A stretch of 64,000 bases of DNA from Prorocentrum cordatum (taxonomy: Eukaryota). Numbering within the stretch: the first letter of the stretch is position 1; each line of letters opens with the position of its first letter. The stretch covers positions 1-64,000 of the forward strand of contig CAUYUJ010000174.1 of the NCBI GenBank assembly GCA_963575745.1, written 5' to 3'. A program made the translations under genes and the position numbers. Under the pieces are notes generated by a model. It saw only the letters and a list, made by a program, of their open reading frames with translations, made no database searches and was not told where the DNA came from. Positions 15,261 through 35,800 of this stretch are shown piece after piece.

Positions 15261-17986
15261 AGGCATCCTCCCCCTTCGCCTTTTTCCTCCTTCTCAGCCT
15301 CCTCCCCTTCCTCCCCCCCGCGTTCCCCGAAACCTTTCCAAACCGACTCGGGAAACACATGGTCCGATAGATTGGCCAAGCTCTATCTAGCCCAGCTATC
15401 AGACACATAGGCGCTTCCACAAGGGCAGGGGGCGGCGGTGATTCGCCGTAGGCATCTTGGATAAAACGATCCGAGACGAAAAAACCGGTTCGGGGCAGGT
15501 GGTCTGGAGCTCTGGAGACTCCGTGCTGGAAAATCAAACCAGCGGAGACCTGAGGACAGAGACAAGGACAGAGAGGCAGACAGGTGGACAGATAGAGAGA
15601 GGTGGAGGGGCGCAGGCATGCCACGCCGCCGCGGCGAATCCCGCGGAGGAGGCAAGCAGAGGGCCGCCGCTGCCGTGCAGAGGAGGAGAAGGAGGAGGCC
15701 CTGACGCGACGGCGCTGGCAGGCCCACGTTACGGCCCTGGCAGCGCAGAAGAAGGAAGATGAGGACAGGGGGGCAGGAGGAAAATAAGAGAGAGGAGAAA
15801 AGAGAAGAACGCAGAGGAGAAGGAAGAGGAGGAGGACGACGAGGGAGGATGAGGAGAACTTGACGCGACTGCTCCTGCAGGTCTACGTTAATGCTCTTGC
15901 AGCGCAGAAGGAGGAAGAGGAGGACACGAAACAGGAGGAACAGGATAATAAGGAAACAAAAAGAAAGAGGAGGAAGACGAGGATGACGAGGAGGGATGAG
16001 GAGGAAGGGAGGAAAGGGGGGACAGGGACATGGTGCCGGGGGGGAAGAGAGGCCCTGAGATTTGACGCTGCGAGAATTGCAACAGCGCAAAAAAAACACG
16101 ACCGGAGCGGAGCCCTGGACCCTGCTTTCTGCTGCGTTTTTCTGGCCAGATCGATCTGTCGGGCGAAAACACTTTTTTCGTCAGCGGCGAGGCGGCGAAC
16201 TCCGCTCCAGCGAGAAGCTAGATAGGGACACTAAATAGCGAAGTAGCCGGCGAGCAAAGAGGGAAAGGGGGACGGCCGAGGGGAAGAAGGGACGCTCAGA
16301 CGCCGAAGAGTTCGACGACGAGCAGCCGGGGGGGCAGCAGCAGCCAGGCGTGCAGCCGGGCGAAAACACCCATAGCGAACAGAAATGCCACGCCAGGATC
16401 TGGGGGGGGGGGTCGTGCCGCGCCCAGCCCAGAGAAGCTCCCCCGCCCAACCCGCCAGAGGAGGGCTCCAGCCAAACAGCGGTCCCGCCGCAGCCCGCAG
16501 GAGGGAAAACAATAGGAGCACGATGATGATGATGATGATGATGATGGATGATGATGATGTGATGATGATGCTGATGATGATGATGATGATGATGTGATGA
16601 TGATGATGAAGAGGAGGGAGGAGGAGGAGGAGGAGGAGGAGAGTGAGGAGGAGGAGGAGGATAAGAAAAGAGGAGGAGAGAGGAGAAAGGAGGAGGATGG
16701 AGGAGGAGGCGGAGGAGGAGGAGGAGGAGGAGGAGGCGGAGGAGGAGGAGGAGGAGGAGGAGGAGGAGGGGAGGAGGAGGAGGAGGTAAGGGAGGAGGAG
16801 GAGGAGGGAGGAGAGGAGGAGGAGACGGAGAACCCCTCGCCCAACCCGCAGAGGGGGGCTCCAGCCAACAGCCGGTCCCAGCCGCCGCCCACTGCGTTCG
16901 CCCAAGAGGAGGAGGGGGACAACAGGACCAGGATGAGGAGGAGAAGGAAGATGGGAGAAGAGGAAGTCGAGGACGAGGAGGGGAGGCGGAGGAGGAGGAG
17001 TAGGAGTAGGAGGTAGGAGAGGAGGAGAGGAGGAGGAGGAGGAGGGAGGAGGAGGAGGAGGTAGGAGGAGGAGGAGAGGAGGAGGAGGAGGAGGAGGAGG
17101 GAGGAGGAGCAGGAGGAGGAGAGGAGGAGGAGGAGGAGGAGGAGGAGGAGGAGGAGGACGACGAGGACGAGACGAGGAGGAGGAGAAGGAGGAGCGAGGA
17201 GGAGGAGGGAGGAGGATGAGGAAGGAGGAGGAGGAGGAGGAGGAGGAGGAGGAGGAGGCAGGAGAGGAGGAGAGGAGAAGGAGGGAGGAGGAGGAGAGGA
17301 GGCGGAGAAGGAGGAGGAGAGGTGAAGACGCAGGAGGAGGGAGGGGGGAAGTGAGGAGGACGAGGCGAGGGAACCCCGAGGGACCGAGGAGGAGGAGGAG
17401 GAGGAGGAGGAGTAGGAGGAGGAGGAGGAGGAGGAGGAGGAGGAGGAGGAGGAGGAGGAGGAGGAGAGGGAGAAAGCCAGGAGGAGGAAGAGGGCCGAGG
17501 ACGAGGCCGAGGAGGAGGAGGAGGAGGAGGAGGAGGAGGAGCAGCAGGAGAAGGATGAGGAGGAGGAAGGGGCGAGGACGAGGGCGAGGAGGCCCAGCGC
17601 AATCGCGCCCACGCCGTGAGCGGGCGCCTCGCCGTCCCCTCGGTGTGCATCCGAGGTGTGCGCCTGGCAGGGAAGCCGCTGGCCCCGCAGCGCGGGCACG
17701 GTGGCGGGTTGGGCCGCCGGGCCCTACGGATGCATACCGCTCTCCTGCGCGGCGGTGCGCGATGTGCGGGGCCCTCGGAAGCGGCACTCCCCGTGCTCTG
17801 CCTCCTCCCACCTGCTCCTCCTGCTCCTCCTCCTCCTCCTCCTCCCTCCTCCTCCCCCTCCTCCTCCTCCTCCTCCTCCTCCTCCCTCCTCCTCCTCCTC
17901 CACCTCCTCCTCCTCCTCCTCCTCCTCCTCCTCCCCCCTCCTCTTCCTCCTCCTCCTCCTCCTCTTTCTCCTCCTCCTCCTCCTTC

Positions 17987-18161
17987 TGCAAAACCCCGAG
18001 GAGGGTTCTGCGCGGGAGCCTGGCAACAATGATAACGATTGGTCACCTTTATACTCCCGAACGGCAAAGCAGGTCTATGTAGCTTCGACCGTTAAACACT
18101 TGAGCCAAAGGCAGCAGGGTTACTATTCCTCCCCTGTCACACGCACGCTTGCATGTTAACA
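17987..18161 (-). repeat. 3' LTR (175 bp)
   Basis: tgcaaaaccccgag...gcatgttaaca, matching 28556-28730 except at two positions. Confidence 0.95.
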
Positions 18162-18169
18162 CCCCCCTC
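18162..18169 (-). promoter_or_regulatory. Polypurine tract
   Basis: Minus strand reads GAGGGGGG immediately before the TGTTAAC start of the 3' LTR. Confidence 0.85.
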
Positions 18170-18568
18170 GGACGCTAGTCCGCATTGGCTGACGGGGAGG
18201 TGCCTATAAACGCAAAGACAGGTTAAATCAAGCAACAGGCTGCATGGACATCGTTATAATACCGAATTCGAAATATCTCATAACAACGTTCACGAGCACC
18301 ACGTCTCTCAGACATGCAACGTGAGCTCAAGTAAACATTCAATCAGTTACGAAATTAAATGTAGCATCCAAAGTTCACACGGCAGGCTAGCATTTATATG
18401 GTTTTGATTGCTTTCGCTTTTTATGCGCCAATACCTGCGGTAACTATAAAAGATGCACATGCAAATAGATTCAGCTCAATAGTCTACTGCAACGCTGTTG
18501 TTAAGCCTGGTTGAGAGGGGAGATGAGAGAGAGCGTAAAAGAAAAGCATGCCGGTCGCCTGTCACCGT

Positions 18569-21019
18569 TTACGAGCGGCGCGGGCGCCTCACTGACGGAG
18601 CACGCGCGCCTCTGGACTTCGGTAAACCACGGTGCCCCACGCTGGCCGCCGTATAGGACGACACCCTGTTAAGGGCCTGCGTCGGGCTGTAATAGTCGGT
18701 GTCCAGGTACGCGTTAATGCGCTCCTCGTCGTCCAGCCAGCACCCCTCGTCAAAGCTCTTGGTGGACCCGTCAACAATGTTGTGGTAAGTGCCGATGGCC
18801 CTCCAGTAACTGGCGTGGGGAGCCTTCAGCAGAGGTTTACCACCTGGATTGTTGCGGAGGTGCTCTTCGACCGCAACTCCGGTAAACGGGTTCACAGTCC
18901 AGGCCGGGTCGGTAAGCCAGTTGGGGAAGTCGTCGCACGGCAACCATCCAAACCAACAGAGCTTCTCGCGGTGGTCACTTTTACGCTCGGTGATGTGATC
19001 GGCAGGCCAGTTGTCACGGTAAAGTGCCCTCATGGACCCCTGATCGTTAAGAGCGACGTCTAGGATGGTCTGGTGCCAGTAAACCGGAGGCTTGTTGATG
19101 CTGCCCTTTAACTCCTCGGCGCTCCTGACCTCGAGATCCTCGATGAAGTAGTTGCGGTAATACACCTGGAGCCCGTTCATGTAACGGCAATAGAGCTTGG
19201 CAAGGTCGTGCGTCGCAAACCTGATCACGGTAACCCCAGTTGAGATGTAACCGCGCGGTCCGTAAGTGTCTTCCACCAGGTGCTTAACGGAGACCACGGC
19301 GGGGTTGCCGTGGGGCAGCATCCCGGCCCACGTTAGCAGAAGGCCGTTAAGCTGCTTCTCGTTCATTTCTGGTGCCTTGTTGACGTAGACCTGTGTATCT
19401 GGGCAGCTGTGAACGTCGAACCACACTGGGTGGAGATCGTTAACGTGGATCGGCGGCACGTACTCGTCGTCGAACAGGGATTGTACGTGCCCGACCGCGT
19501 CAACCCACTCGTCGTGCTTGGCCAGCTCCTTCTCCGTCAACTGAGATCTCCAGCTGCACGGGCCCTTCAACACTGAGTAACCGAGGAAGCCGTAAGCGTG
19601 CTGCCCGTAAATGTCGACGAACACCTCATCGTAGTCGTTAAGCTCCCGCCCCGCGTTGCCCTGAATAGACCGACCACCTGGAGTCGTTAACCCCTCTTTT
19701 GCCACATGTCCGACGAAGTTGCCTTCGAACCTGCGCCAGTTGTCGCGCGTCTTCATCGTTAACGCGACTACTTCCCTGGGGTCGGGCTCCACCTTGTAGT
19801 TGACGTCGTGGTCCTCGCTCCTGTCGTTCACCATGGGCATGCGGCCGTTGACATGGTACAGTGGGCGGTACATGCCCCTGGCAACGTTCCGCGAGTACGC
19901 CGCAAGCTGCTCGTCTGTACGGTTAACAGCTTGAGGCTGCGGTGGAGGAACGCGCTGGGTCGATAACTTCTTGGGCACCGGAGGCGGGGGATTCATGCCG
20001 CTATCACTGCTCGATGCACCTGACTCGCCAAGGCCTGGAGGAGGCGGCTTGGGCGCCCTCACGTTCACCACCGGGGCAGGACCTTTTGGTACTTCGTCAC
20101 GTTGACTGCCCTGTGCGCGATCTTCATCCATCTTCATTCCCAGCTGCAGTAACTCTTCCAGTTCCCGTTTACGCTCATGCATGGCCTTGGGTGCTTTCTT
20201 GTAAACAGGTTGAGGTGACGTTGACTGCGGGATCTTATTCGGCGACACGGATCGACCGAACCCTCCGGTCTTGGGCGTGGCGCCGGTAAAGCCCTGAGCC
20301 GGGGGTGCACCCGATGCCGCGGCAGCTCGGGCTAGAGGCTTGCTGGCCTCGGCCGCCGCGTTGACTGCAGTGGGAGGCGCCTTGGCGGCCACTGCCGTTG
20401 GGGGCTGCTCGGGTAACGGCGGAGGAACCTGCGGGATGTTGGTAACCGGGGAGTTGATCGGGTCATGCAAGAACCTCTGTAATCCTTCGAGCCTCTCTGT
20501 TACTGCCACCAACAGGCGCAGTGCCGCATCACGTTTACCCTCGAAGTCCTGCAGGGGCGTGTTCTCGGTAAGGCGCTTGGCGGTGTTCAGGAGGTAACCA
20601 ATGTTGTCGTTGATGCGCCTATACTTGGTTGCATTCTCCTCCGTGTTAACTCCCGAGTCACGATTCTGAATGTTCAGGTCCGTAATCGTCGCCATCAGAG
20701 CGTTAATCTCCGCCTGCGCCCTTTGGAGATTCTCGTTGACGTCGTCACTGTCCTGGATCAGCGCCTCGTTCTGCCGCGTTAATTCCTCGATCCTCTTCGC
20801 CATGTCATCCGCGGCCCTTTGCACCTCGTCAACGTGTTTGTCGTAGGCTCCGTGGAAGTTGATCGCCATGTTAGTGAGGGTTACGGTAAACGCGTGAGCA
20901 ACGTGCACCATGTCGTCAACACGGCGGTTGAGGTTCTCACGCGTAACCGGTCCATCCCCAGCCGGGCTCTGGTCGACCATGGAGCCGTTAATGGTGAGGT
21001 TGACCTGAGGAGCCGCCAT
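18569..21019 (-). CDS. Retrotransposon ORF3 of unknown function: coiled coil, Pro/Ala linker and RRM-like C-terminal region
   Basis: Uninterrupted ORF (track 18569-21136; likely start MAAPQVNL at 21019). The N-terminus is heptad-rich. It contains RNP2-like QVYVNKAP, RNP1-like STGVTVIRF and AKLYCRYMNG. Confidence 0.8.
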   Translation of the reverse strand: MAAPQVNLTINGSMVDQSPAGDGPVTRENLNRRVDDMVHVAHAFTVTLTNMAINFHGAYDKHVDEVQRAADDMAKRIEELTRQNEALIQDSDDVNENLQRAQAEINALMATITDLNIQNRDSGVNTEENATKYRRINDNIGYLLNTAKRLTENTPLQDFEGKRDAALRLLVAVTERLEGLQRFLHDPINSPVTNIPQVPPPLPEQPPTAVAAKAPPTAVNAAAEASKPLARAAAASGAPPAQGFTGATPKTGGFGRSVSPNKIPQSTSPQPVYKKAPKAMHERKRELEELLQLGMKMDEDRAQGSQRDEVPKGPAPVVNVRAPKPPPPGLGESGASSSDSGMNPPPPVPKKLSTQRVPPPQPQAVNRTDEQLAAYSRNVARGMYRPLYHVNGRMPMVNDRSEDHDVNYKVEPDPREVVALTMKTRDNWRRFEGNFVGHVAKEGLTTPGGRSIQGNAGRELNDYDEVFVDIYGQHAYGFLGYSVLKGPCSWRSQLTEKELAKHDEWVDAVGHVQSLFDDEYVPPIHVNDLHPVWFDVHSCPDTQVYVNKAPEMNEKQLNGLLLTWAGMLPHGNPAVVSVKHLVEDTYGPRGYISTGVTVIRFATHDLAKLYCRYMNGLQVYYRNYFIEDLEVRSAEELKGSINKPPVYWHQTILDVALNDQGSMRALYRDNWPADHITERKSDHREKLCWFGWLPCDDFPNWLTDPAWTVNPFTGVAVEEHLRNNPGGKPLLKAPHASYWRAIGTYHNIVDGSTKSFDEGCWLDDEERINAYLDTDYYSPTQALNRVSSYTAASVGHRGLPKSRGARAPSVRRPRRS

Positions 21020-21107
21020 GCCTTCGTTCACGCCCAAGAGTAAGAGGTAATGGGTGGAGAAGGCCTTTAATAGCTGCAGTTTGCTTGACAGAAATGAGCT
21101 GCGAACA

Positions 21108-23198
21108 TCAACATTCGGTAGCTGGCGCAAGCTCATGCCTACCTGTTAATGCACATTGATTCGTGTTTCGTAGATGTGTGCTCATGCTTTCACGACTGAC
21201 ATACTTGGTCAACGCATCCGCTGCATTCTCATGTGTCCCTACTTTCACAATACGAATCACTCCCTCCTTAACTTTCTGCTGTAACCACAATTGACACACC
21301 TCGATATGTCTTACTTTCCCCAAGCCTCGTCTGCTCGCAATGGCAATCGCAGCCGTGGCGTCGCTCTTCACTGTAATCTCAACTTCCAAGTTAAAGTCTC
21401 TTAATACTGCCTGAAGTCCTAAACCCACTGATCCTCCTTTCACAAGTCCATAATACTCTGCTTCACCTGACGATAATGCGATGACACTCTGAGTCGTGCT
21501 CCAAGATTTTATGAGATGTTTACCCCACATTACTACTCCTCCACTCGTAGACTTCCTCGTTCGCTTACATCCTGCGTAATCCGTGTCGGTCCAAATAGTT
21601 AATTCTTGGGGCTGCTCCTGATATTGATACACATAGCTGCTTCTGCTGTGGTACTTCAAATACTTTCCTAACTTGACTAAACCCTTCCAAGAACTCATCG
21701 TTGGCTTTGACATGGTCCTAGCGAGTTCCTTCACATAATACTGTATGTCAGACCTGTCCTGAGCTAAGTAGTTTGCTCTGGCCGTCAACGCTTGATATAT
21801 TTTAGTCATGTTGGGCGAAAGTTCTACCTCATCTCCCTCTTCAACTGGAATTCGCTCACCTGGCACTTCAGTCCTCACTTTTACTCCTTCTAGCTCAAGC
21901 TCTTTCACAATTATCTCTGCATGCCTTTGATCTGCCTCATACCTCAATCCTTCCTTCGTCCATTCCACAATCCTGTTCAGAATTCTGATCGCCTTCATGT
22001 CCTCCTTCCCTGGTCCAAGTCGTCCTCTCACCTTCACTTCAAACTCCTCCTTAATTTTATTTTCAAACCAGTCGAGATCATGATCACCTCCTAACAGCGT
22101 GAAATCATCTCCATGAACTGTTAACCATAACGCTCGACTCTCATGCTTGAACACGCATGGTGACGCAATTCCGCTCTTGAACCCAGCCTCGTTAGCAAAG
22201 TCCATGTAACAGTCTTCCCAGTTGCTCGCAGCGTCTCTGGTTCCGTACATTGATTTTAACAGTTTTCCGCACATGCCTGGTTCATAGTCTTCGTCTGGTA
22301 ACCTGATAAATATGTCTTTCTTTGCTGGAGCGTAAAAGTAAGTTCGTTTGATGTCAACGAATGCTAACTTTAATCCTTTCTCACGCTCACCGTTCGTGAA
22401 TCCAACTCCCTCGGTAACTGCCATTGAGAAAAGCAGTTTTTGTGCCTCCAGTGGAGGTGTAGCTGCGAATATGTTCTTTTCTTTGGAATTGTATTTAACC
22501 TGCTGGGCTACCAGCCTTGATCTGTGGTCTGGGCTTAACTCATCTCCTTTGTTGATGTCTATCCATCTGGTTCCGATGGGCGCCTTCCCCGTGATTTGCC
22601 AACGCACTTCCTCCCTCACTTTCTCGTAAACTTTGTGTTTTCTGAATTGTTCCATTTCTTCTTGACGTGCTTTTACAGTCAATTTAGGGTCGAGCTCGTT
22701 TCCTGTGACATCATCCCAAGCTTGAGTAATCTCTCCATTTTCTCTGTGGACAACGTTGATCGTGTTCATTGGGAGAGGGTTAACTGTACCAGTTCTTTCG
22801 CACGCCGCACATGTGCTAGGCGCCTTGAGCCATCCCTCATGCTCACATGCACAGCACTTCCACCTGTGTGGAGCAATTTCGCCGACAGCTTCATACGTAA
22901 AGGTGGTGGAAGTGTTAACTGGTCCCTTCTTAAACATTCTCCTTCTCTCTTTCCCTGTGATCTCGTTCACAGGCCTGTCCTCGATAATCTTCCCGGTGTC
23001 TATGTCAGCGGTAATTCTCCTAATGCATGAACTCCATTGCGGTCCACTTGGCCCCGGCAGCATTAATCTTTGTGTTCCATAATCTCTCCTCGTCCACGTT
23101 AACTGGTGCTTGTGCTTCCTATCTTCGTTCTCATGTTCACATGCCCAGTTAATCTCGCTTATCTGCGCCTCACTTTGTTGTTCTTCTTCGACTTCCAT
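21108..23198 (-). CDS. pol: copia reverse transcriptase + RNase H
   Basis: RT motifs TRWIDINKG, RSRLVAQ, DIKRTYF, KSMYGTRDA and VHGDDF. RNase H motifs TDTDYAGC, RKSTSGG, SSGEAEYY, SDATAA and ADALTK. Confidence 0.95.
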   Translation of the reverse strand: MEVEEEQQSEAQISEINWACEHENEDRKHKHQLTWTRRDYGTQRLMLPGPSGPQWSSCIRRITADIDTGKIIEDRPVNEITGKERRRMFKKGPVNTSTTFTYEAVGEIAPHRWKCCACEHEGWLKAPSTCAACERTGTVNPLPMNTINVVHRENGEITQAWDDVTGNELDPKLTVKARQEEMEQFRKHKVYEKVREEVRWQITGKAPIGTRWIDINKGDELSPDHRSRLVAQQVKYNSKEKNIFAATPPLEAQKLLFSMAVTEGVGFTNGEREKGLKLAFVDIKRTYFYAPAKKDIFIRLPDEDYEPGMCGKLLKSMYGTRDAASNWEDCYMDFANEAGFKSGIASPCVFKHESRALWLTVHGDDFTLLGGDHDLDWFENKIKEEFEVKVRGRLGPGKEDMKAIRILNRIVEWTKEGLRYEADQRHAEIIVKELELEGVKVRTEVPGERIPVEEGDEVELSPNMTKIYQALTARANYLAQDRSDIQYYVKELARTMSKPTMSSWKGLVKLGKYLKYHSRSSYVYQYQEQPQELTIWTDTDYAGCKRTRKSTSGGVVMWGKHLIKSWSTTQSVIALSSGEAEYYGLVKGGSVGLGLQAVLRDFNLEVEITVKSDATAAIAIASRRGLGKVRHIEVCQLWLQQKVKEGVIRIVKVGTHENAADALTKYVSRESMSTHLRNTNQCALTGRHELAPATEC

Positions 23199-23217
23199 GT
23201 TCGCTACTTCTTCTTCT

Positions 23218-25000
23218 TTATGTACCCCCTTGACGACCGTCGATCTTCATTTGCTTTACAAGTCCTTTCAGTATCGCTCGACACAGTTTATCTGGGTAGA
23301 CCTCTGATCTGTGCGTCCTACCGCCACCAGTTAACTCCATGTGTCGATGTTGCCCTTTACATTTCCAGCTTAACTCATGGCCAATGGCTGAACTGTTTGT
23401 CATGAACTTGGTCGGTTTCTTAATGAACATCTCTTCGCCTTTGACCATCTGCTTTAAGTCGTAACAGCACAAATCTCCATCGTATACTTTGACATCCTTG
23501 TTTCTGAGTAACCGTTGCACCGTTGAAGTGCCCCAGCTGGTTGCTCCTGCAGGGTGCTCAAACAGAAAGTATAACCCATTTCGCCGTTGAATTTCGCAAA
23601 GCTCCATCGCAAACGTCAAATGCTTGATCCCGTAATCCAACATCTGTTTCACACGGTCGGCACCTAATCTTTTAAAGTTGAACGTTTGGAGTCTGCTGAA
23701 GGCTGCGCACATGGGGCTCACCACCAGTAACAGGGCTGCTTTGGATTTGACAATCTTTTTCGCTTTCGCACGCATGGCTGGCACATTAAAATCCCATGGG
23801 TTACCATGTTGGTCTCGCGTCGTTAAGTCCATTGCTAATCCCGGTATCAATCCCATTTTTTCTGCCATTCCAGTAACTCTCACCGGCGAATACGCATCGG
23901 TCACGTGCGCCTGAGTCTCGTGTTGGCATGCCCCATGGAGCCTGGTGGCTCTCCTTACTTCGTTTAATTGACGTACGATGTTCAATTCCCCACTTGTCAA
24001 CCATTCAACCAGTTCAGAGTCAAATCCCATCATGTTGAGCCCCAATCTGATGTCGTTTACTTCTGACATTTCTTCATCTTGTTCCATATCAAGTTGACGA
24101 TGCTGAGTTGCCTGTTGATCTTCTTCGTCGTGGTCGCCCTCTGCTTTTCGTTTAATGGGTTTACTCGGGGAATCTTTCATTTCTTCATCTTCCACTTCGA
24201 ACTCGGTCCATCCGGTCCAGTAACCGTTAAAGGGGTTTCCCATAGCCCATGTTTGATCGTCTCCATCTTCACCATACCAAGCACCTTCGTGCTCATGTAT
24301 CTTGCCGCCGTCAATCATGATCGCGTGGGTATATCTTTTAGGCTTAAGTTTGTCCCAATCTACTGGGCACCCACCATTGGTGGGGAAGGCTAACTCTTTC
24401 CTCGGTCGTCGGTGCTGGCATATAACTTTGTTTCCCTTTATTACCCACTCGTCCTTAGGTTCCTCAACTTTGGCGCTCGGCGGAGGTGGTACATTGATCC
24501 TCAGTTTCTTCGCTTGACTTTCTGATTCTTGTTCGCGATTTTCTGGTGCACGACTTTTACTCTCAAGCCTTAACTGCGCAGACGCTAGCCTTGCCTGGAT
24601 GCTCGGGCTCTCTTGTTTCTTTAACCATTCAATAACTCGAGCCCTGCAATCAGCGTTATGCGGCTTGTGTTCTTTGTCTCCTCTCACGAGGCATTTACAT
24701 CCGTAACACCCTGGTGTCGGTCCCATTTTCAAGTATTCGTGCTTTTTAACTGCAATCCCTCGTGCAATGAGCGGCTTCGTCTCAGGCGCAGTTAAATCTT
24801 GCTCTGGTAGATCCATGGGTACCATGATCCTAGACTGTAATTCCATTCCCGCTGTGCTCGGGTCAGGCTGCCAAGGTAACCCCTTTATTTCGGTGATCTC
24901 GGCAATATTCCATCTTTCCGCATCACTTCCTTTTCTTTTAAACTCGTGCGCCTTGATTGCACCATTGGGCGCCCCAATAATTAGCTCTTCACTTTTCTCG
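23218..25000 (-). CDS. pol middle segment: integrase C-terminus, CxxC-H-C motif, acidic linker and C5 cytosine methyltransferase-like domain (~23250-23907)
   Basis: TPGCYGC...HNADC, then VTDAYSPVRV (motif I-like), LVVSPMC (motif IV-like, PxC instead of PC), FLFEHP (motif VI-like), DLCCYDL...KKPT (motif VIII-like) and YPDKLCRAI (motif X-like). Small indels separate it from the neighbouring ORFs. Confidence 0.75.
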
Positions 25001-25970
25001 TGCCTAGAAACACTCCACTTTCCCATCTCATTGCGAGCTTCTCGCGGCCTTTGTGCGCAGGTGTCTTCAAATACATGACACACTCACCAAACTCAGGAAT
25101 TTGCTTGTTAAACTTTCGCCCCCTGCACCTCTCATGGGCCGTCTTCCCATCCGTGTCTATTGTGAACTTGTTAATCAAAGAGGACGCGCAGCTCACCAGC
25201 CAAGGTATTATCTGATGGCTTTCACCAAACTCAGTCTTATAATTGGCATCTAAGGCGCTCTTTAACGTTCTGACCTGACCCTGCACTGTCCTAACGGCTC
25301 TCTCAATTTCGCCATTGGCCTTTGAGTCGCCGACTGGGCTAACTTCAACTCCCATGTCAAGATCACACGAAGCTTTAATCCTATTAGCCAGTGCTGTGAT
25401 TGCCGCTTCCCCATCACTTTTGAGTATCACCTTCTTGTATCCGGTAAAACTTATCATGTCACATCCTACTTTTACCGAGTACGAGTCCACTCCCTTTTTC
25501 ATCAACACTCTGCTCCAAGTTAATTTGGTCTCTCTGCAATGCATGGCCAAAATTGGATTGCCATTGCTGGTGCTTTCACCTTCATCCTTTCTTCCTTTAA
25601 GCCACATGTAGTCCATTGAAATCACTGGCACGTTTCCGTTCCCCTCTCTTTTGCGTCTACGGTGATTGCGTCTGCGCGCTTTCCCTCTAACGCAATGTGG
25701 GCGCCAGCTTCGGTAAGGCAAATGCGTCGTGTTATGCGCTTCAACTTCCTCCTTTGAGGGCCTCATGTCACAGTAAACTTTCTTTGGTAACTCCGCTTCA
25801 TCACCCGCAAATACATCTTCCACATCACTTAACTCACTATCGTTGCCCCCACTTTCACTTCCTTCGTCTCCTTCGGTATTAAAGACGTTTAAGTTTTCGC
25901 TTGGTCTTACGGGTGATGGGGGGCTTAGTAGAACAGATCCGCCTCCAGGGTTCCCGGCCGCGGAAAACCC
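24981..25970 (-). CDS. pol: integrase
   Basis: HNTTHLPYRSWRPHC (HHCC with one Cys replaced) and a DDE triad in ISMDY, KSDGE and NGEIER. The frame is open back to the slippery site at 25964-25970. Confidence 0.9.
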   Translation of the reverse strand, partial: GFSAAGNPGGGSVLLSPPSPVRPSENLNVFNTEGDEGSESGGNDSELSDVEDVFAGDEAELPKKVYCDMRPSKEEVEAHNTTHLPYRSWRPHCVRGKARRRNHRRRKREGNGNVPVISMDYMWLKGRKDEGESTSNGNPILAMHCRETKLTWSRVLMKKGVDSYSVKVGCDMISFTGYKKVILKSDGEAAITALANRIKASCDLDMGVEVSPVGDSKANGEIERAVRTVQGQVRTLKSALDANYKTEFGESHQIIPWLVSCASSLINKFTIDTDGKTAHERCRGRKFNKQIPEFGECVMYLKTPAHKGREKLAMRWESGVFLGTRKVKS

Positions 25971-28534
25971 TCAGTAACGTTCACTTCGCTCCTGGGATTG
26001 ACGGCCTCCGCTGGTCCCTTCGGTACTGTGATGTTGAACTGGAATGTGCCATTCTTCTCATGAATGGTTGTGAACTTACCGGTCGCCTTGTTCATGATGT
26101 GGCTCAGGGATCTCCCGTTAGAACCCTTGTCGAACACCACTCTATTTCCAGCGTTTACCATCTCTCTGACAGATCCTAGGACTTTGTTGACCTCTGCTAC
26201 CTGAATCGGCATACTGACGGCGCTCCCATGCTCATTTTTACCTGTGATCACTCGTTGACCATAATTCTTTATCGTGGTTCCATTTGCTGCACTGTAGTGT
26301 CGTCCCTGCTTTGACGCGCCCGTATGCTTAATAGGGAAATGAGTGCCAACTTTGGGGGGCCCCACTGTGTTGTATGCGCCGGAGTCCACGGTAACCACGA
26401 TCGTCTCATGCGTTGCACTTGGCGGTGGCACCGCGTTAATCTCTGGATCACAGCCCCGCATCTCAATTAGCCCAATTTCCTTGCACTTCTCCAGCCAACT
26501 TTTTTCCTGCCTCACGCTTTTACTTATTCTCTGGTCCCATTGACTAGTATGATTACAGTCCCCGTTACGCTGGTGTTCCTGATAAATTCTTTTCAAATTC
26601 ACCGCGTTGTTACGTGCCGTTTTCTTTCTGGCGTAATAGGGCAGGTCCCATTTCTCGTTAACCTCCTCGATTGCAGGCTGGTCTAGCGGCACGTTCATTG
26701 CTTCCTTCATCTCAACGCTGAGAACATGCTGTGGTTGGCCGAACGAGGTGGTTTGTTCAATCTCAGTGTTCACTGCAGGTTTCTCTTGCTCAACTTCGTT
26801 GGCGGTCTTCTTAGGGCCCGGACAGTTAATGGCGATATGCCCTTTTCCGCCACACTTGTAACACTCACGCTCGCTGTGCGGGGTGAACTTCCCTTGGCCT
26901 CCGTAGCTTCCTCCCCACGAGCTACTTCCTTTACCTCCCTGTTTGCCTCCGATCTTACCTTTCACATAGGATCCGTAAGTGGCTCGGTAACCTTTGCCTT
27001 TTCCGCCCTTGCCACCTTTACCTCCTTTGGTGAACTGTTTAGGTCTTGTGCAGTTTCTGGCTAAATGGCCCATGCCTCCACAATTGTAACACCTGGGGCC
27101 CGCTCCTTTACCTTTGCCTTTGTTTACGGCGTCAATTTCTTCATATTCTCCACCGTCGCTCTCATTGGCCCAGGACCCGTAATTCCACGATCCGTCTTCT
27201 GACCACCAGTTTCCATCTTCGTCAACCCATCCTGTTTGGTCCCAAACATTTTCGGACCCTTGACTCATCTCGTTGATATTCCCAATGTCCATTGCATCCT
27301 TATTTTTCGTATCTGAGTCAAGTTTCTTTTTACGCGCCCAGTCTTCGCACTTTGAGTACAATTTCTGAAATGAGTCAATGTTAAGCGCGTCAGGCGTTCG
27401 CCAACATGCCTGCTGCCATTCGTCGAACCAGTCATTCGCGTGCACCATTATGGCCCTGAGCGCGGTGACTTTAAAAGGAAGAGGCAGCGAGTAATCTTTA
27501 CCATATTTCTCAAGATTTTCTGCCAATGCGCTCCATTCCTCAAGTCGGGTAACGGTGTCAGTGATCTTCTTGGGCGGCTCAGGATTCATGGCATGCGTCA
27601 TTTTTGATGATAAGGTCGCTCCGGTTACCGCCGAGTACCATTTGTAAACCTTTTGCCAAGCCATGATTCCATCTCCATCCATCAGTCCCTTTAATTTTCC
27701 TCTGGCCTCCGCACCTTCAAGTTTCTCGTTCAGAATGTACCATAAGTCTTCCTCCATCTGAGTTTTGTCTCCCTCGGTGAACTCATATTCGCCTTTGTTG
27801 TCGTCCTCGGCCTGTTTGGCTTGATTCGCCTTCAGGTACTCACTTGCAGTTAATCGGCCGTTCATTATGCGTATGATGTCGTCATCGTCCTCCTCTGGTA
27901 CGACTCCGTCAAGCGTCTCCAGCTTCTTGTTTAGCATTTTCAGTGCCGGTCGGTAACTCGGCTTCACTTGGGCTAGTGCGTTCAAGAACTTGTCGTTCCA
28001 GTCTCTGAACTTTGCTCTTTCCCCACTGAAGTTCTTTAGCGCCTGTAATGCTTTATATTCGCTTATCGGTTTACTGCTCCCGTGCTTGCTTCCGCTTCCT
28101 CCTTTAATCGCTTCCGAGATCTGACCAAACCTTTCGATCAACTTTTCTTGTACTTCACTGTTGGTCTCCAACTCGGTGACTCTTTCCACCAATCTGCGAG
28201 CATCCCTTTCGAGTGCAGCGTTTCTCTTTGTGATCGCTAACAGCATGCTGTTGGTCTTGTGGGCACTCTGTAACATTTGGAACGCTTCGGCATTCGATAC
28301 CTCCCTTCGATCCTGTGTTACTCGCTCGTTAATGAACGTTGCGAGTCCGAAATGGTTCGCGAGTAGCGCCGTCTGAACGTAACTGAAGTCTCCGCTCATG
28401 TATGCTTGCTCGCACAGATCGTTGAAGCGATTCGGGTCCATGTTGACCCATGCATCTCTGTCTGCCGGCACATTGAGATTAACTGGCGGGTCGCCCTGCC
28501 CAGGTCTGGCCGCAGCTGCCGCTGCCGCTGCCAT
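25925..28534 (-). CDS. Gag-protease polyprotein (869 aa)
   Basis: Two CCHC knuckles (CYNCGGMGHLARNC and CYKCGGKGHIAINC) and the aspartic protease motif VTVDSGA. The ATG lies just downstream of the PBS. Confidence 0.93.
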   Translation of the reverse strand: MAAAAAAAARPGQGDPPVNLNVPADRDAWVNMDPNRFNDLCEQAYMSGDFSYVQTALLANHFGLATFINERVTQDRREVSNAEAFQMLQSAHKTNSMLLAITKRNAALERDARRLVERVTELETNSEVQEKLIERFGQISEAIKGGSGSKHGSSKPISEYKALQALKNFSGERAKFRDWNDKFLNALAQVKPSYRPALKMLNKKLETLDGVVPEEDDDDIIRIMNGRLTASEYLKANQAKQAEDDNKGEYEFTEGDKTQMEEDLWYILNEKLEGAEARGKLKGLMDGDGIMAWQKVYKWYSAVTGATLSSKMTHAMNPEPPKKITDTVTRLEEWSALAENLEKYGKDYSLPLPFKVTALRAIMVHANDWFDEWQQACWRTPDALNIDSFQKLYSKCEDWARKKKLDSDTKNKDAMDIGNINEMSQGSENVWDQTGWVDEDGNWWSEDGSWNYGSWANESDGGEYEEIDAVNKGKGKGAGPRCYNCGGMGHLARNCTRPKQFTKGGKGGKGGKGKGYRATYGSYVKGKIGGKQGGKGSSSWGGSYGGQGKFTPHSERECYKCGGKGHIAINCPGPKKTANEVEQEKPAVNTEIEQTTSFGQPQHVLSVEMKEAMNVPLDQPAIEEVNEKWDLPYYARKKTARNNAVNLKRIYQEHQRNGDCNHTSQWDQRISKSVRQEKSWLEKCKEIGLIEMRGCDPEINAVPPPSATHETIVVTVDSGAYNTVGPPKVGTHFPIKHTGASKQGRHYSAANGTTIKNYGQRVITGKNEHGSAVSMPIQVAEVNKVLGSVREMVNAGNRVVFDKGSNGRSLSHIMNKATGKFTTIHEKNGTFQFNITVPKGPAEAVNPRSEVNVTEGFPRPGTLEADLFY

Positions 28535-28537
28535 GGC

Positions 28538-28555
28538 AACCGCGCTCCGCTACCA
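28538..28555 (-). promoter_or_regulatory. Primer binding site, probably tRNA-iMet
   Basis: TGGTAGCGGAGCGCGGTT directly follows the CA of the 5' LTR. TGGTAGC is the complement of an initiator-Met-type 3' end. Confidence 0.8.
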
Positions 28556-28730
28556 TGCAAAACCCCGAGGAGGGTTCTGCACGGGAGCCTGGCAACAATG
28601 ATAACGATAGGTCACCTTTATACTCCCGAACGGCAAAGCAGGTCTATGTAGCTTCGACCGTTAAACACTTGAGCCAAAGGCAGCAGGGTTACTATTCCTC
28701 CCCTGTCACACGCACGCTTGCATGTTAACA
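28556..28730 (-). repeat. 5' LTR (175 bp)
   Basis: Direct repeat of 17987-18161. Confidence 0.95.
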
Positions 28731-29097
28731 CCTCCTCCTCCTCCTCCTCCTCCTCCTCCTCCTCCTCCTCCTCCTCCTCCTCCTCCTCCTCCCATCTCCT
28801 CCTCCTCCTCCTCTTCCTACTCGATGCGTTCGTCTTTAAGCAGAGCCCTCCTCGAGTTACTTGTGGTAGAAGTACCTCCTTCCTGCTTCACCCCCAGACA
28901 TGTTGGTAGGGCGGGCTGGGCGCTTCTCCTGAGACTTATTCACCGCTTATGATCCTGTGAATGTTACAACAGCTTCACGGACCGAGATCGGGTCATTCTC
29001 AAAAATGTGGCTCTCGCCTTAGCGCCGCGCACGCTCGTATTAGAAAATGAACCAAACGCGACCCCGATCAGGGTTAAGCTTGCCATTCCATGGGCGC

Positions 29098-29285
29098 AGT
29101 GCTTGGCATTGCTTAGCGATGCTTGAGATTGCTTGGCGTTGCCAGGCATTGCTTGGCACTGCTTGGCGTTGCTTGGCACTGCTTGGCATTGCTTGACATT
29201 GCTTGAAATTGCTTTGCATTGCTTGGCATTGCCTGGCATTGCTTCGCATTGCTTGGCATGCTTTCCATTTCTTGGCATTGCTAAG
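29098..29285. repeat. Short-period tandem repeat (GCATTGCTTG-like)
   Basis: Repeated ttggcattgc and ttggcactgc units. Confidence 0.85.
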
Positions 29286-32200
29286 ACTACGAAGCATCGG
29301 GGGCGGGGAACCCGAGTAACCCGGGGAATCCGAGGAACCTGAGGAACCATCAGAAACTAGGCAACGTATCAATAGGAAGCACCTGGGGCGGGAAACCCAA
29401 AGAACTCAGGGAACCCGAGGAACCTCCGGGAAACGGGCAACGTAGCAATAGGAGGCACCTGGGGCGGGGAACCCGAGGAACCCGAGGAACCTCCGAGCAA
29501 CGGGCAAAATAATAATAGAAGTAACCAACCCTTCATCAAGTAAGAAGTCCTTAGGCAAGCCTAGTTGGGACATTACAAAGGCTTCACGGATTGAGGGCGG
29601 GCCGTTTTCAAAATGTGGCTCTCGCCTTAGCGCCCCGCATTGTAAACATCTGCAAGAGTTTCACATATTTAGGGCGGTTCGTTTTCGAATTGTGGCTTTC
29701 GTCCAAGCGCCGCACACCCTCGTTTTTTTTTTGACTTGACAAGAGCTTCACGGATGGAGTGCCATTCCTGTTCAAAGTGCGGCTCTCGCCGTAGCGCCGC
29801 GCACAATCGTCCTAAACGCCTGCATGAATTTCATGGATGGAAAGCGGCTCGCTTTCAAGATGCGGTTATCGGCTAGGTACCGCGCGCATTCGCCTTAAAG
29901 GTCTGGTTTCAAAGCTGGAGGCCAGGCCGGCTTTTACAGGTGGTTCTCGCCCCAGCGCCGTGCAGTCTTTCGGCAACATGTCACGAGAGGTTCACAGATG
30001 GACGGCGGGTCGTTTTCAAAATGTGGCTCTTGCCCCAGCGCCGTGCACAGTCGTCTTCAAACTATCGCAACTGTTTCAAGGATTCGTAGGGGTAAAGTCC
30101 CAGACGCAACAGTAGTGTTGACTCGCGGTGCTAAAGTCCGAGGAGCGGTGTTCTGGCACGGTTTAGGGTTGTCAGGACGCAAGAGTCACGTCGACCCGCT
30201 GCGCTGAAGTCTCAAGAATGGGGTCTTGGCACGGCTGAGGTTGCTCATACGGTTGTCTTCCAATGGGGCACTTCCCGCAATGACGAACATCTTGTATGGG
30301 CCTATGAAGGGGAAACTTGGAGGAAGGGTGTACTGCAATTTCGTTGATGAATCTTGAGTTTACACTGGTTATCCTCCTACTCGCCCTCCTTCCTCTTCCA
30401 CTGCTGCCCCCTCCCTCCTTCTCTCCCAACACCTCCACTTCCACCTCCGCCTCGTCCTCCTCCTTCTCCTGACCCTCCTCCTCTTCCTACTCCGTCTCCT
30501 CATTCCTCCTCCATTTCTTCCTCCTCCTCCTCCTCCTCCTCCTCCTCCATCCTCCCCCTCCTCCTCCTCCTCCTCCTCGTCCTCCTCCTCCTCCTCCTCC
30601 TCCTCCTCCTCCCTCCTCCTCCTCCTCCTCCTCCATTTCTTTCCTCCTCCTCCTCCTCCTCCTCCTCCTTCTCCTCGGGGCGGGGCCACGGCCGAACAAG
30701 AAAACACCCGAGCAGGAGCCCGGAAGGCCAAGGCGGACAGCCCTGGTGGACGCCCACGGCGACGCCCTGGGCTGCCAGAGCAGCCCGGGGCGCTCGGGGA
30801 GGAGGACAACGACCAGGACCACGGCGCACATGGCAGGCAGATCTCTGAATCCACGAACTGGGTGCGGAAGCTTGAGGGCAGGAGGGACGGACAAAGGGGG
30901 GCTGGGGGGGGGGCGGGGAGGGGCGGTCGTAGCGTCGTGGTGGTGGCGGTCGTCGTGGGGGTGGTCGTGGAAGCATTGGTGGTGACCACGTCCTCCTCCT
31001 CCCTCCATCCCCCCCTCCCTTCCCTCCTCCTCCTCCTCCTTCTCCTCCTTCTCCTCTTCCTCCTCCTCTGCTGCGTTCTCCTCCTTCTCCTCCCTCCCCT
31101 CCTCCCTCCTCCCTCCTCCCTCCTCCCTCTTCCTCCTCCTACCCCTCTTCCTCCTCCTCCTCCTTCTCCTCCTCTCGTCGGGGGGGAGAAGGCGTCCCAA
31201 GCCAGCACGCCAGCGGCACCTCCTCCTCCTCCTCCTCTTCTTCTACTTCTTCTTCTTCCTCCTCCTCTCCTCCTCGTCCTCCTCCTCCTCCTCCACCATT
31301 CAATTTTCCGTGTGAATAACTCCTCCCTGTCGCGCCCCGAGGCCAGTCGGAAGGGCGGCCGGGCGTGTCGCCTGAGACTTCCTTTCGACGCATGAGCCCC
31401 AAGCTGAACAACTTGCAACAGCTTCACAGATGGAGGGCGGGTCGTTTTCAACATGTGGCCCTAGCCTTAGGGCCGCGCACATTCGGTTTAAAACTTTGCA
31501 AGAGCTTCATGGATTGCGGGTGGGTGGCTTTCAAAATGTGGTTTCGCCTTTTCGCCGCGCACATTCTTGTTAGAAATCCTTCAGAGCTTCACGAAGTGAG
31601 GGTGGGTGGTTTACGAAATGTGGTTTTCGCCTTTTCGCCGCGCACATTCGCTTTACAAGTCCTTCAGAGCTTCACGTATGGAGGGTGGGTGATTTACGAA
31701 ATGTGGTTCTCGCCTTGCCGCCGAGCACATGCTTTTAGAAATCCTTCAGAGCTTCACGGATTGAGGGTGGGTGGTTTACGACATGTGGCTCTCACCTTAA
31801 CGCCGCTCATATTCGTTGTACAACTTTGCAACAATTTCAAGGCTGCTCGTGATTTACGTACCAGAAGTGGCGTGTTTGAGCGATTCAGGATTGACAGAGC
31901 GCAACAGTACTGCTAATTCACTGTGTTCGAATCCCACACGTGATTTTCTGGCACGATTCAGGATCGTCCAGACGCATCAGTTAAGTTGACTCTTGGTGTT
32001 GAAATTCGGAAAATGATGTTTTGGTGCGCGTCAGGATTTTCAAACGGCTGTCCCCCAACGCTGTAGGTGCCTATGAAAAAAAGGAACTTGGAGGAAGGGT
32101 GTATCCCAACATCGTTGATGAGTCGTGAATTTGCTCTGGTCCTCCTCCTCCTCCTCCTCCTCCTCCTCTCCTACTCCTCCTCCCTCCTCCCTCCTCCCCT

Positions 32201-32837: not shown

Positions 32838-35800
32838 CTATGGAGGGCTTAGTGCCTCCTCTCCCTGGGTCTTGGCACGCTCCTCGCGCACCAACTGGGC
32901 CAGGGGAATAGCGGGGGTCTTAAAAACGATCGGGGACGACTTTGTGCCCTTGGGATCTCGACCCTCCTGGACGCGGGCTAGCTGAGTGGCCGCTCCTTGG
33001 TGGCTCACTCTAGTGCTGCACGCACTAGCGAGCCCTCGACCCAACCCTTCAGAGAAGGATCCACACTTATGGCAAACCAAGATACTCGTCGGGTGATCAA
33101 GGTGCTCGTAGTAAAACAAATCGTGGCCTTTATTATCATGCACAAGATCGGAGAGCTGCTTACAGTGGCCTGGGCAATGCTGGGCCTGTAAGACTCCCCG
33201 CTGTTTGAAAGACTTGGTCTGCACTCTACACAGGATGCACCTGTGGTACTGGTGAATGAGAGCCCATGTGTGGTACCTGAAGGGCTCTCTGGGCTCCTCT
33301 TGGGGCACAGGCGGAGGCGGAGGGGGGGGGGGGCTCGACCGACGACGGCGGCGTCCACGACGAAAGGGCAGAGGCGGCACCCGTGGGGGGAGAAAAACTC
33401 TTCTCTGGGGCGGCCAAAACTTTGTTGCGGTGGGGGGCGATCGCGGGCCACTCTCCCAGAGCCTGCGCAACATACTTCAAATATCGCACGATAAACTTCC
33501 GACTGTCAGTGAAATCACTTTTCTCTGCTTCACTGGGCTGCATTCCTTTAAAAGCGGCTGCCTTGGCAATGCGGTCAGCAGTGCTATTACCTTCGGCCAA
33601 CCTTCTCTCTTCACTGCCTTCTGAGAGGGCCTGCAAGTCTTGGTGGGCCTTGACCTTGCGCAGGCGTTGGCCGAGGGGGAACTAGCTCCTGCCAGCCAAG
33701 ACCTTACACCCAGCCCATACGTTGTGCCGAGGGTACTCAGACCCTTGGTGCAGGGACAAAACTCGTTTATAATCAGAGTAAATGACTTCCACATCCCTAG
33801 AAAGAATACTGGCCGCAACAGCGGCCAAATGCTCCGCGGCACCCGAGGTTTGTAAAAACATCTGGCCGACTCGGCCACTGAAATGGGCAAAAGCTTCACC
33901 GTTACGCATACAGACAACCGCGAAACCTGCGGCGTTGAAAACATAGTGACCGTGGTTAGTGCAACTACCATCTATATACACCTCCCCTTCGCTGAAAGCC
34001 TCCTGCGGGGTGATCCCCTCCTGAGCACACCAAAACTCCCCAAACTCCAGGCCCGAACCAGGAGGATTCTCTCCACGATACTCGGGAACCAGCTGGAAAC
34101 CGAGATACTGGGGCAGGGTCTGGGGAGGAGGCTCTCTTAAATTCTGAAGCTCCGCTGCCGAGAAGTGAGTGGTTCTGAGATTCTCTGTCTTCGGGCAGTA
34201 AAGTATGCGGTGGCCGAGGTTGTCCGAATGGTGGCCGCACTCGCAGCCAGTCTCGACTTCATATCCTGCTGCCTTGGCTCTGTCCATAGTCCATATACTC
34301 TGGGTGAGGAAGGCGAGGAGGGTTCCCTTCTGGTGGCCAAGGAGGTCTGGCGATGACAGAGCAGCACGGGCAGCAACCACATCTAACTGGGCGTTCGGGT
34401 GGCCGATCTTCTCGGCCGCCTTGGAAGCGAGCTGGCCGTGCCAGTCGAACTCCATGAGCTTTTGGAGGAGGGCGGGGGAATGTCCTGGGAGAGGGTACTC
34501 AATGCCTGAGGAGGTCACAAAAGTAAATGGTCCCTGGAATTTCCAACCGATCCTTTTAAGCGAAAGCACCGCAGCGCTTAGGGGGCCCCTGGAGGAGCCC
34601 CAAGATTTAACAACTCTCGGGAGGATGGCCTACACGTAACTGCTGGAGGCTGGTCACGGCGAGGTGGGGGCGGGTGGCGGCGTCCCAAACAAGGCGATGC
34701 CACATAATGGCGGGGCCCAGGGCAGCTTTCCACAAGGGGTCCTTGAGGATGAGCAGAGCCAAACTGCGGCTGCGCGTCGGGCAACGGGGTCCCGCAGCAA
34801 AAACTGCGACCTAGCTGATTCCAACTGCGTGCCATTGATGCCAGTCACCTCGACTCCGAACGTGGTGGCCGCCTCGAGGCCAGTCCCATACAACTTATGA
34901 GTGTTACCCCCTGCTCTCTTGAGCATGCGAACCCTGTTAAGTCTTTTACGCATCTTATCAAGACGCTCCGAAATCTTACGCTGCTTTCTCCAGCGTCGTT
35001 GGGGCCGTCCAGCCCCAGTTTCACAACCCAGGTTAGGTCCAGACCTATCCGAGTTCGGGCCCGCCAGAGGCCCGAGGGCCGTCCTGAGTTGATCCTGAAG
35101 GGCTTGCTGGGACGCCAGGACCTGACTTTTCTTGCTGGCGATCTGGCACTTAAACTCATTGATGATGCAGTCTGCCATGGACCTGGCAGCAATATTGAGC
35201 TGGCTGGCGATGAGGCTGCAACTGCGGCCGTGGCACTGGAGCAGCAGATCATCTATAAACATCGCGAGCCTGATATGACAATGCGCCTGCGTCCACACGT
35301 CGAGCGGGGCGAGCACATACATTTGCACAATATAGGTGGCCCAACTGCATCCTGCGGCTATGCCCCTCCAAGGCTTGCCTACGCTGACTGCACAATCTTG
35401 TAGTGCAACTATGCGTTCACTGGCATATTGAGATAGTATGATACGCAATAAACAGCACGGAAAACCTGATTCAACAGCACGATAAGCAAGACAAGGCCGA
35501 TCAACATGTTCGTAGTAGTTAGATAAATCGTAGAGAACTTGGGCACTATATTGTTGATCTTTGTCAGAGCTGTTGAACTCGCATTCCAAGGATTGTTTGT
35601 ATACTAATTCCACTATGGAGTGACCAGCCTGATGAGCAAGATACGGCCTGCGGTGGTGTGCCTCCCACTCTCTGGCCGCTGACCTCCTGAGCCTAGCCCA
35701 GACTCTGTACAAAGCTGGAAGCATGCCAATGGACCTGAAAGAGGGCTGGCTGGCTGGGGCATCATGCTGTTTCAACTTCATCATCAGAGTCGATACGATG

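Follow-up and report, generated by a model that had tools for sequence, protein, structure and literature searches.

The 64,000-nucleotide stretch analysed here (the window; positions 1 to 64,000 of contig CAUYUJ010000174.1, assembly GCA_963575745.1) from Prorocentrum cordatum carries on its minus strand a full-length Ty1/copia retrotransposon of 10.7 kb (17987–28730). Its pol region codes, between integrase (IN) and reverse transcriptase (RT), a domain of ~225 amino acids (aa), termed here X (23233–23913, minus strand), whose relationship to cytosine-5 methyltransferases (C5-MTases) is the subject of this work. The feature set of a Ty1/copia element is complete: long terminal repeats (LTRs), CCHC-type gag, protease (PR), IN ahead of RT (Pfam RVT_2) and RNase H. 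Read from stop to stop, the element interior is composed of five successive minus-strand open reading frames (ORFs). The constituents are listed in the order of the element from its 5′ end:

28556..28730, minus strand: 5′ LTR of 175 nt, TG...CA, identified from the direct repeat pair
28544..28555, minus strand: primer-binding-site-like sequence TGGTAGCGGAGC, adjoining the 5′ LTR, read from the sequence
25925..28549, minus strand: gag-protease ORF, 874 aa (Pfam zf-CCHC, E 1.6e-11)
24981..25970, minus strand: integrase ORF with HHCC finger and D,D,E core, from the alignment with 11 relatives
23218..25083, minus strand (open from 25083 to 23221): ORF carrying X in its last 230 residues
24637..24708, minus strand: zinc-finger-like module C-x2-C-x13-H-x3-C-R-x-R upstream of X, from motif reading
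21108..23246, minus strand: RT/RNase H ORF, 712 aa (Pfam RVT_2, E 5.2e-13)
18569..21145, minus strand: third ORF, 858 aa, 3′ of the RT/RNase H ORF, with no Pfam family above cut-off
18162..18170, minus strand: polypurine-tract-like sequence CGAGGGGGG ahead of the 3′ LTR, read from the sequence
17987..18161, minus strand: 3′ LTR of 175 nt, TG...CA, identified from the direct repeat pair

The LTR pair is 98% identical over the 180-nt repeat detected, and the primer-binding-site-like sequence presumably resembles the 3′ end of initiator tRNA-Met. The most informative relative is a 10.5-kb metagenome contig (L011) whose X is 70% identical to that of the window and whose plan is intact: a gag-PR ORF of 857 aa, a single uninterrupted IN-X-RT-RNase H ORF of 1,614 aa and a third ORF of 885 aa. 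The window gag-protease ORF, which displays two CCHC knuckles (27091–27050 and 26863–26822) and the aspartic protease motif DSGA (26386–26375), is 49% identical to the first ORF of L011, while its RT/RNase H ORF is 73% identical to residues 949–1614 of the second. The H-x4-H...C-x2-C finger and the D, D and E residues of the integrase are visible when it is aligned with its 11 relatives; the Pfam rve model is not reached, and BLASTP of the window integrase against protein P0195 gives no similarity. The third ORF is 29% identical over 553 aa to its 885-aa counterpart and evolves fast; this Copia lineage may have in it an accessory or env-like gene. Note that its only Pfam matches are sub-threshold ones of coiled-coil type.

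The preliminary description of this DNA, made from its letters alone, proposed that a C5-MTase-like domain is inserted between IN and RT, on the grounds of five ordered motif strings. The strings are found in the claimed order in one minus-strand frame, from 23904 to 23272, and the domain is flanked by the integrase ORF (24981–25970) on one side and by the RVT_2 ORF (21108–23246) on the other. Their positions, the fourth string being given as its two parts, are:

23904–23875, minus strand: VTDAYSPVRV
23730–23707, minus strand: LLVVSPMC
23568–23551, minus strand: FLFEHP
23475–23461, minus strand: DLCCY
23421–23410, minus strand: KKPT
23298–23272, minus strand: YPDKLCRAI

X is present in one copy in the window, and a Pfam scan of its ORF returns no family. 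It corresponds to residues 30–256 of the translation of 24000–23218 (P0001), to which all residue numbers refer. It belongs to a very large family: a HMMER scan of 1.84 billion representatives, with matches spanning residues ~30–256, detects 5,982 clusters at E values of at most 1e-3, 2,328 at most 1e-10 and 167 at most 1e-30. A word-index search yields 58 relatives of near-equal length, from ENA assemblies (54), JGI (2), Logan (1) and EukProt (1), the last being labelled Pyramimonas sp. (P0017, 54% identity). Searching for longer proteins gives 12 relatives, the best of which, also a EukProt Pyramimonas sp. protein (P0321), is 82% identical.

The conservation of the family was counted in an alignment of 77 sequences (A2). 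The 18 positions conserved in at least 90% of them (W69, P96, C98, H127, Q138, G142, E148, H149, P150, A153, S155, W156, C178, K195, T197, N202, C214 and H220) are all retained in the window. The putative catalytic cysteine and glutamate, whose retention had been claimed earlier and whose conservation among copies had been proposed as a test, are near-invariant (C98 in 73/75, E148 in 75/77), as is P150 (76/77); D58 (67/69), D70 (66/74) and R41 (55/57) follow closely. Motif I reads Y-S-P-[PV]-R in the family with its aromatic residue retained (Y in 44 and F in 10 of 57), motif IV reads S-P-[MP]-C, and motif VI is E-H-P, keeping only the glutamate of E-N-V. The two deviations pointed out in the preliminary description are thus genuine: the family consensus of motif I has no glycine, and the window has S-P-M-C, with Met instead of Pro before the cysteine. 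The motif strings are not a product of chance, since no columns of the X family are more conserved than theirs.

The AlphaFold2 model of X, computed on A2, has alternating strands and helices and high confidence values (mean predicted local distance difference test (pLDDT) 90.7, predicted template modelling score (pTM) 0.87). The cysteine is placed directly after strand 4, the glutamate at the end of strand 5, and D58 and D70 at the ends of strands 2 and 3. Foldseek against the PDB gives 24 matches with E of at most 1e-3 (best E 1e-4, template modelling (TM) scores 0.43–0.48); among the matches listed, 40 of 42 are C5 cytosine methyltransferases (DNMT3A/3B, DNMT1, DNMT2, MET1) and the other two are MtmC. 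VIA-align, which works independently of Foldseek, ranks C5-type enzymes in all top 10 places out of 48,161 chains (Z 9.2–10.8), with DNMT3B (6u8p_A) at Z 10.8 (root mean square deviation 4.0, 191 residues aligned), DNMT3A at Z 10.4, MET1 at Z 10.1 and M.HhaI at Z 9.9. Generic Rossmann proteins reach Z values of 8.7 at most, a margin of 1–2 Z units that, taken alone, is suggestive and not decisive. Residue 1 of M.HaeIII aligns to model residue 31, which brings its motif I opposite D-A-Y-S-P-V-R. In BFVD, a collection of predicted viral structures, the best matches are proteins of 210–220 aa (E 1.8e-8 and 7.7e-6), among them one of Tetraselmis virus 1 named as a putative cytosine DNA methyltransferase (E 7.7e-6, target TM 0.59) and one of a Lactococcus phage named as a putative DNA methylase. 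The affiliation proposed from the letters is borne out by these three fold searches, in each of which C5-MTases come first, and their ranks assign X to the class I methyltransferase fold with C5-MTase topology. A protein-language-model atlas returns unnamed clusters first, one of them auto-named cytosine-5 methyltransferase family protein, and PF00145 as the nearest Pfam-bearing cluster (0.84), which serves as a lead only.

Comparison with PF00145 and Dcm-type enzymes, the reference set put forward in the preliminary description, gives weak or no match when made directly and succeeds through a family of small phage enzymes; the link therefore needed structure and an intermediate family. A word-index search seeded with Dcm retrieves only close Dcm orthologues (at least 79% identity), too uniform for a diverse profile, and PF00145 applied to the E. 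coli record matches dcm only. When the 77 members are scanned against PHROG, phrog_757 is matched by 23 (best E 4.4e-6), phrog_2882 by 14, phrog_116 by 5 and phrog_363 by 3, and these four most frequent families are all annotated "DNA methyltransferase"; the window X sequence itself has no phrog_757 match. In all five phage records tried, phrog_757 coincides with annotated cytosine methyltransferase genes. Its best match, P0358 of Bacillus phage Thurquoise (221 aa), passes PF00145 with 33.8 bits (cut-off 22; E 3.2e-8) over motifs I–VI. Profile comparison with hhalign aligns the X family to P0358 (88.3%, E 2.9e-6) and, over 201 columns that are nearly the entire domain, to an alignment of seven phage mini-MTases (A4; 97.5%, E 5.3e-12). 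A4 in turn aligns to 12 canonical enzymes over motifs I–VI (98.6%, E 6.3e-16). The residue equivalences that follow were taken from these profile alignments and their aligned ranges, no superposition having been inspected:

motif I, [DE]-L-F-A-G-x-G-G: E/D35-x-Y37-S-P39-[PV]-R41 in X
motif II acid: D58 in X
motif III Asp: D70 in X
motif IV P-C: S-P-[MP]-C98 in X
motif VI E-N-V: E148-H-P in X

In the two-step alignments Y37 is equated with the motif I phenylalanine. C98 coincides with the Dcm P-C cysteine also in the direct hhalign comparison with Dcm-type enzymes. The acids of motifs II and III bind the adenosine of S-adenosylmethionine (SAM) in canonical C5-MTases. X is almost certainly a true, highly divergent homologue of the C5-MTases, and its sequence places it with the ~220-aa phage mini C5-MTases of phrog_757 type, which lack a target-recognition domain (TRD).

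These phage enzymes, which include Thu_144 of Bacillus phage Thurquoise (221 aa) and gp60 of Haloferax tailed virus 1, share with X not only their size but also a series of signatures in the same order: E-x-[FY], S-P-x-C-[TA]-x-x-S, E-[NH]-P and C-x-[YF]-G, to which are added K-P-T, a Cys/His-rich stretch and [IY]-P-x-x-L-C. The arginines of motif VIII and a large TRD are absent from both. They differ in that the phage proteins are stand-alone while X forms part of the polyprotein of a eukaryotic retrotransposon, and in that the phage proteins keep the first motif I glycine (7/7) and E-N-P where X has Pro and Arg for the glycines and E-H-P. In addition, one phage mini-MTase (P0358) passes PF00145 whereas X fails. 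They are the nearest sequence relatives of X found by the PHROG scan and hhalign. Among solved structures the best match is the catalytic domain of DNMT3A/DNMT3B, whose target-recognition region is short as in X; the identity is 8–12%, and motifs I, VIII, IX and X of DNMT3 are canonical.

Throughout a large Ty1/copia lineage, X is an integral component of the Pol polyprotein (IN-X-RT-RNase H) and is kept by selection. Both P0321 and the second ORF of L011 continue through the X/RT junction. Searches with a single window protein found four related metagenome loci, among them L011, L012 and L014; in two of the four (L012 and L014) X contains stops or frameshifts, showing that decayed copies, or low-coverage assembly errors, exist beside intact X copies. 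Pfam scans of 34 long members reveal two architectures: X lies 70–210 aa (mostly 70–110 aa) ahead of RVT_2 in 15, and ~120–150 aa ahead of the integrase core in 9. The remaining 10 comprise one that probably has X before integrase and 9 that are uninformative. A tree was computed with IQ-TREE under LG+G4 from 61 rows, namely the window sequence, 7 phage proteins and 53 out of 124 proteins whose domain is near-complete, eukaryotic DNMT3/4 sequences being left out; its bootstrap had yet to settle fully. All Copia X domains fall into one clade versus the phage proteins (100/99), separated from them by a long branch, and within the X-before-RT type the X-before-integrase type is nested as one clade of its own (99/98). 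X therefore has a single origin in Copia and was relocated once inside pol. The move was likely from the position before RT to the position before integrase, a direction that is not proven because the root falls on the long branch.

The segment preceding X carries a further conserved module. The zinc-finger-like signature listed above is found, as C-x2-C-x9-16-H-x3-C-R-x-R, upstream of X in 22 of the 36 members that have at least 260 aa in this region, at a distance of 157–326 aa from the catalytic Cys. In a second AlphaFold2 model, which spans 561 aa from the zinc finger through the linker to X, the module is confidently folded (pLDDT 92–97 for residues 50–120), with a pTM of 0.50 that is too low to fix the placement of the finger relative to X. 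The module has flanking helices and is separated from X by a beta-rich stretch modelled with moderate confidence. Two relatives of the X-before-integrase type carry a GRF zinc finger (PF06839) upstream of X (P0356, residues 203–241; P0357, residues 178–205; E values 1e-10 and 1.1e-7). GRF fingers bind single-stranded DNA.

The selective constraint on X was assessed by comparing the window with L011. Synonymous sites (dS) are saturated in all pairs, so that only ratios of nonsynonymous to synonymous differences per site (pN/pS) are used:

X (227 codons): 0.206
RT-RNase H: 0.218
IN: 0.247
gag-PR: 0.386
IN carboxyl terminus and linker: 0.441
ORF3, carboxyl-terminal part: 0.72

By this sequence measure, X is as constrained as the core enzymes RT and IN. 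Sibling copies are available as contigs from four public sequencing runs (X1 to X4). Run X1 yields 994 such contigs, of which 235 are at least 99% identical to the window, 345 lie at 95–99% and 414 at 90–95%. Among the 40 best-supported single-letter differences in pol between the window and its siblings, 28 are synonymous when taken singly, and the three located inside X are all synonymous. Between positions 21000 and 26100 the window differs from its siblings mainly by transitions that are uneven between strands (run X1, plus strand: C>T at 109 places versus G>A at 60, T>C at 82 versus A>G at 72), a pattern that may stem from editing, from methylation-driven deamination or from sampling.

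The copy in the window is itself defective. Two short gaps break its pol into three frames relative to L011, the Pyramimonas protein and the sibling contigs; they coincide exactly with the frame changes and with the stop after X:

24995..25005, minus strand: frame break after the integrase; the window is short of 4 letters that are present in all the depth of runs X2, X3 and X4
23217..23222, minus strand: frame break with a TAA stop where X adjoins RT; this copy is short of 2 letters that are present in sibling contigs

The two letters missing at the X/RT junction are supported by depths of 110.6/179.7 in run X1, 21.4/21.4 in X2 and 15.9/15.9 in X4. The integrase finger reads W-R-P-H-C, with Arg in place of the Cys of its relatives; at position 25703 all contigs of the four runs differ from the window, giving Cys versus the Arg codon. 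The X segment of this copy is open and has every conserved residue.

The G+C content of the element is 51% versus 59% for the window. Long GGA/CCT-type microsatellites flank the element (16181–18091, 28740–28800 and 30355–30700), and it seems to have been inserted into such a microsatellite; a target-site duplication is not readable with confidence (GGAGG versus GAAGG). Two types of tandem repeat lie beside it: a 10-nt array of 12 copies (29086–29275) and an ~83-nt unit in two arrays (29581–30048 and 31421–31810) with 12 copies in all. A long interspersed nuclear element (LINE)-type retrotransposon (34654–38894, minus strand) codes an Exo_endo_phos ORF (E 9e-8) followed by an RVT_1 ORF (E 2.7e-8).

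Cytosine methyltransferases carried by retrotransposons have precedents. De Mendoza et al. 2018 (PMC5890265) describe SymbioDIRS-Dnmt3, SymbioLINE-DNMT and KnitGypsy-Dnmt3, propose methylation of self cDNA for the DIRS-borne Dnmt3 and report that no DNMT domain is present in Symbiodinium Copia elements. EpiLTRs carry a DNMT4-like module according to a preprint (bioRxiv 10.64898/2026.05.21.726589). X resembles these retrotransposon DNMTs in having a C5-MTase fold within the coding region and in being under purifying selection. The known ones are canonical eukaryotic enzymes of DNMT3 or DNMT4 type that are found with PF00145 and whose carriers are DIRS, LINE and Gypsy/chromovirus elements. X, by contrast, is not reached by PF00145, belongs to the phage mini type and has a Ty1/copia host. 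DNMT3 members are mentioned for LTR Copia elements in a paper of 2025. A 2026 preprint reports DAM-LTR retrotransposons that co-opted prokaryote-like adenine methyltransferases; they are like X in that a methyltransferase of prokaryotic or viral type was captured once, then spread and moved among retrotransposons, and unlike it in enzyme class (N6-adenine), the word Copia being absent from that text. Literature searches found no published description of a phage-like mini-methyltransferase domain in Copia, an absence that is not proof.

X is very probably functional in some way. The reading preferred here, with a rough probability of 0.5, is that it would be an active cytosine-5 methyltransferase acting on the cDNA of the element. 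X would be synthesised and packaged along with integrase and reverse transcriptase and would follow the usual route, in which the cysteine attacks C6, the glutamate protonates N3 and the methyl group comes from SAM. Its substrate would be the element's own new cDNA, in the particle or in the pre-integration complex, and new copies would arrive pre-modified. The modification may disguise or protect these copies, as in phages with related enzymes. The more complete statement, that marine protists and algae have a very large, hitherto unrecognised Ty1/copia lineage which packages an active C5-MTase of phage or viral ancestry, glycine-less and TRD-less, and methylates its own cDNA before integration, is put forward tentatively.

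A number of results weigh against an active enzyme. None of the 77 family members reaches the PF00145 cut-off, three of them giving weak matches (best E 0.047), and sequence searches of the PDB, whether started from the protein or from the family profile, give only chance matches (E 1 and 1.5). Direct hhalign of X aligns motif IV alone, with E. coli Dcm (1.3%) as with 12 Dcm-type and phage C5-MTases (4.1%); forcing longer or global alignments with Dcm-type enzymes yields nothing reliable. Both glycine positions of motif I are substituted (P39 in 48/57, R41 in 55/57), so that the cofactor pocket may be altered. Motif VIII has K-P-T at the matching strand instead of Q-x-R-x-R, and no sizeable TRD is found, ~35 Cys/His-rich residues preceding the last helix. 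The reliance of the residue equivalences on profile alignments, as stated above, counts here as well. Finally, the CpG observed/expected ratio is 0.95 in the element versus 0.76 in the rest of the window; an element without CpG depletion bears no footprint of long-term CG methylation. In the case of a young copy that is under selection, this missing depletion carries little weight.

Several of these features would be expected if X were a pseudo-enzyme, that is, a methyltransferase fold without methyl transfer that serves as a module for nucleic-acid binding, base flipping or covalent trapping, or as an IN-RT scaffold, in a role likened to that of DNMT3L serving DNMT3A. The glycine-less Y-S-P-P-R of motif I extends to the whole family while the first glycine is present in all seven phage mini-MTases, motif VI is E-H-P rather than E-N-V/P, DNMT3L is among the structural matches (Z 7.8) and CpG depletion is missing. 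However, the residues that should decay first in such a protein, the cysteine, the glutamate and the motif II and III acids, are near-invariant (73/75, 75/77, 67/69 and 66/74), and the arginine of the motif I loop (55/57) is placed as in most phage mini-MTases, which argues for a pocket that was remodelled rather than lost. We regard a pseudo-enzyme, the main rival to the preferred reading, as rather unlikely. The lack of a sizeable TRD also fits a C5-MTase acting on RNA, RNA:DNA hybrids or single strands in the manner of DNMT2, which would stabilise or mark the element RNA or the primer tRNA. Dnmt2 of S. pombe is among the fold matches (Z 8.2, Foldseek E 4.7e-4), and de Mendoza et al. (PMC5890265) bring up RNA methylation as a possible role of the SymbioLINE DNMT, an enzyme that did not methylate DNA when tried in yeast. 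Such a target is improbable: DNA enzymes outscore DNMT2 (DNMT3B Z 10.8, M.HhaI Z 9.9), and the closest sequence relatives of X are phage enzymes annotated as DNA methyltransferases. That the resemblance arose by chance in an unrelated Rossmann-like protein or in, for example, a Cys/His protease would agree with the missing Pfam match and with the many short-chain dehydrogenases found at Z 7.4–8.6. This explanation is close to refuted by the leading rank of C5-MTases in the three fold searches, by the two-step profile homology (97.5% and 98.6%) with motifs in register and by the annotation of the four most frequent PHROG families as DNA methyltransferases; as for a protease, the element already encodes an aspartic one.

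Retrotransposon-borne cytosine methyltransferases are known from few lineages and were all found with the standard Pfam model, which X escapes. X is thus a cryptic and very abundant methyltransferase domain carried by a retrotransposon and present in thousands of clusters. Its phage-like ancestry adds a further capture of a prokaryote- or virus-type methyltransferase by eukaryotic retroelements, beside the adenine methyltransferases reported in 2026. If X is inactive, it is a widespread and strongly conserved pseudo-enzyme in pol. If it is active, it would be a natural minimal C5-methyltransferase whose remodelled cofactor loop is relevant to enzyme mechanism, and surveys of 5-methylcytosine writers among eukaryotes and mobile elements would be incomplete. 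An active X that methylates cDNA would be the most widespread transposon-borne DNA-modifying enzyme, unseen by PF00145-based surveys, and some of the genome methylation of algae and protists could be written by transposons.

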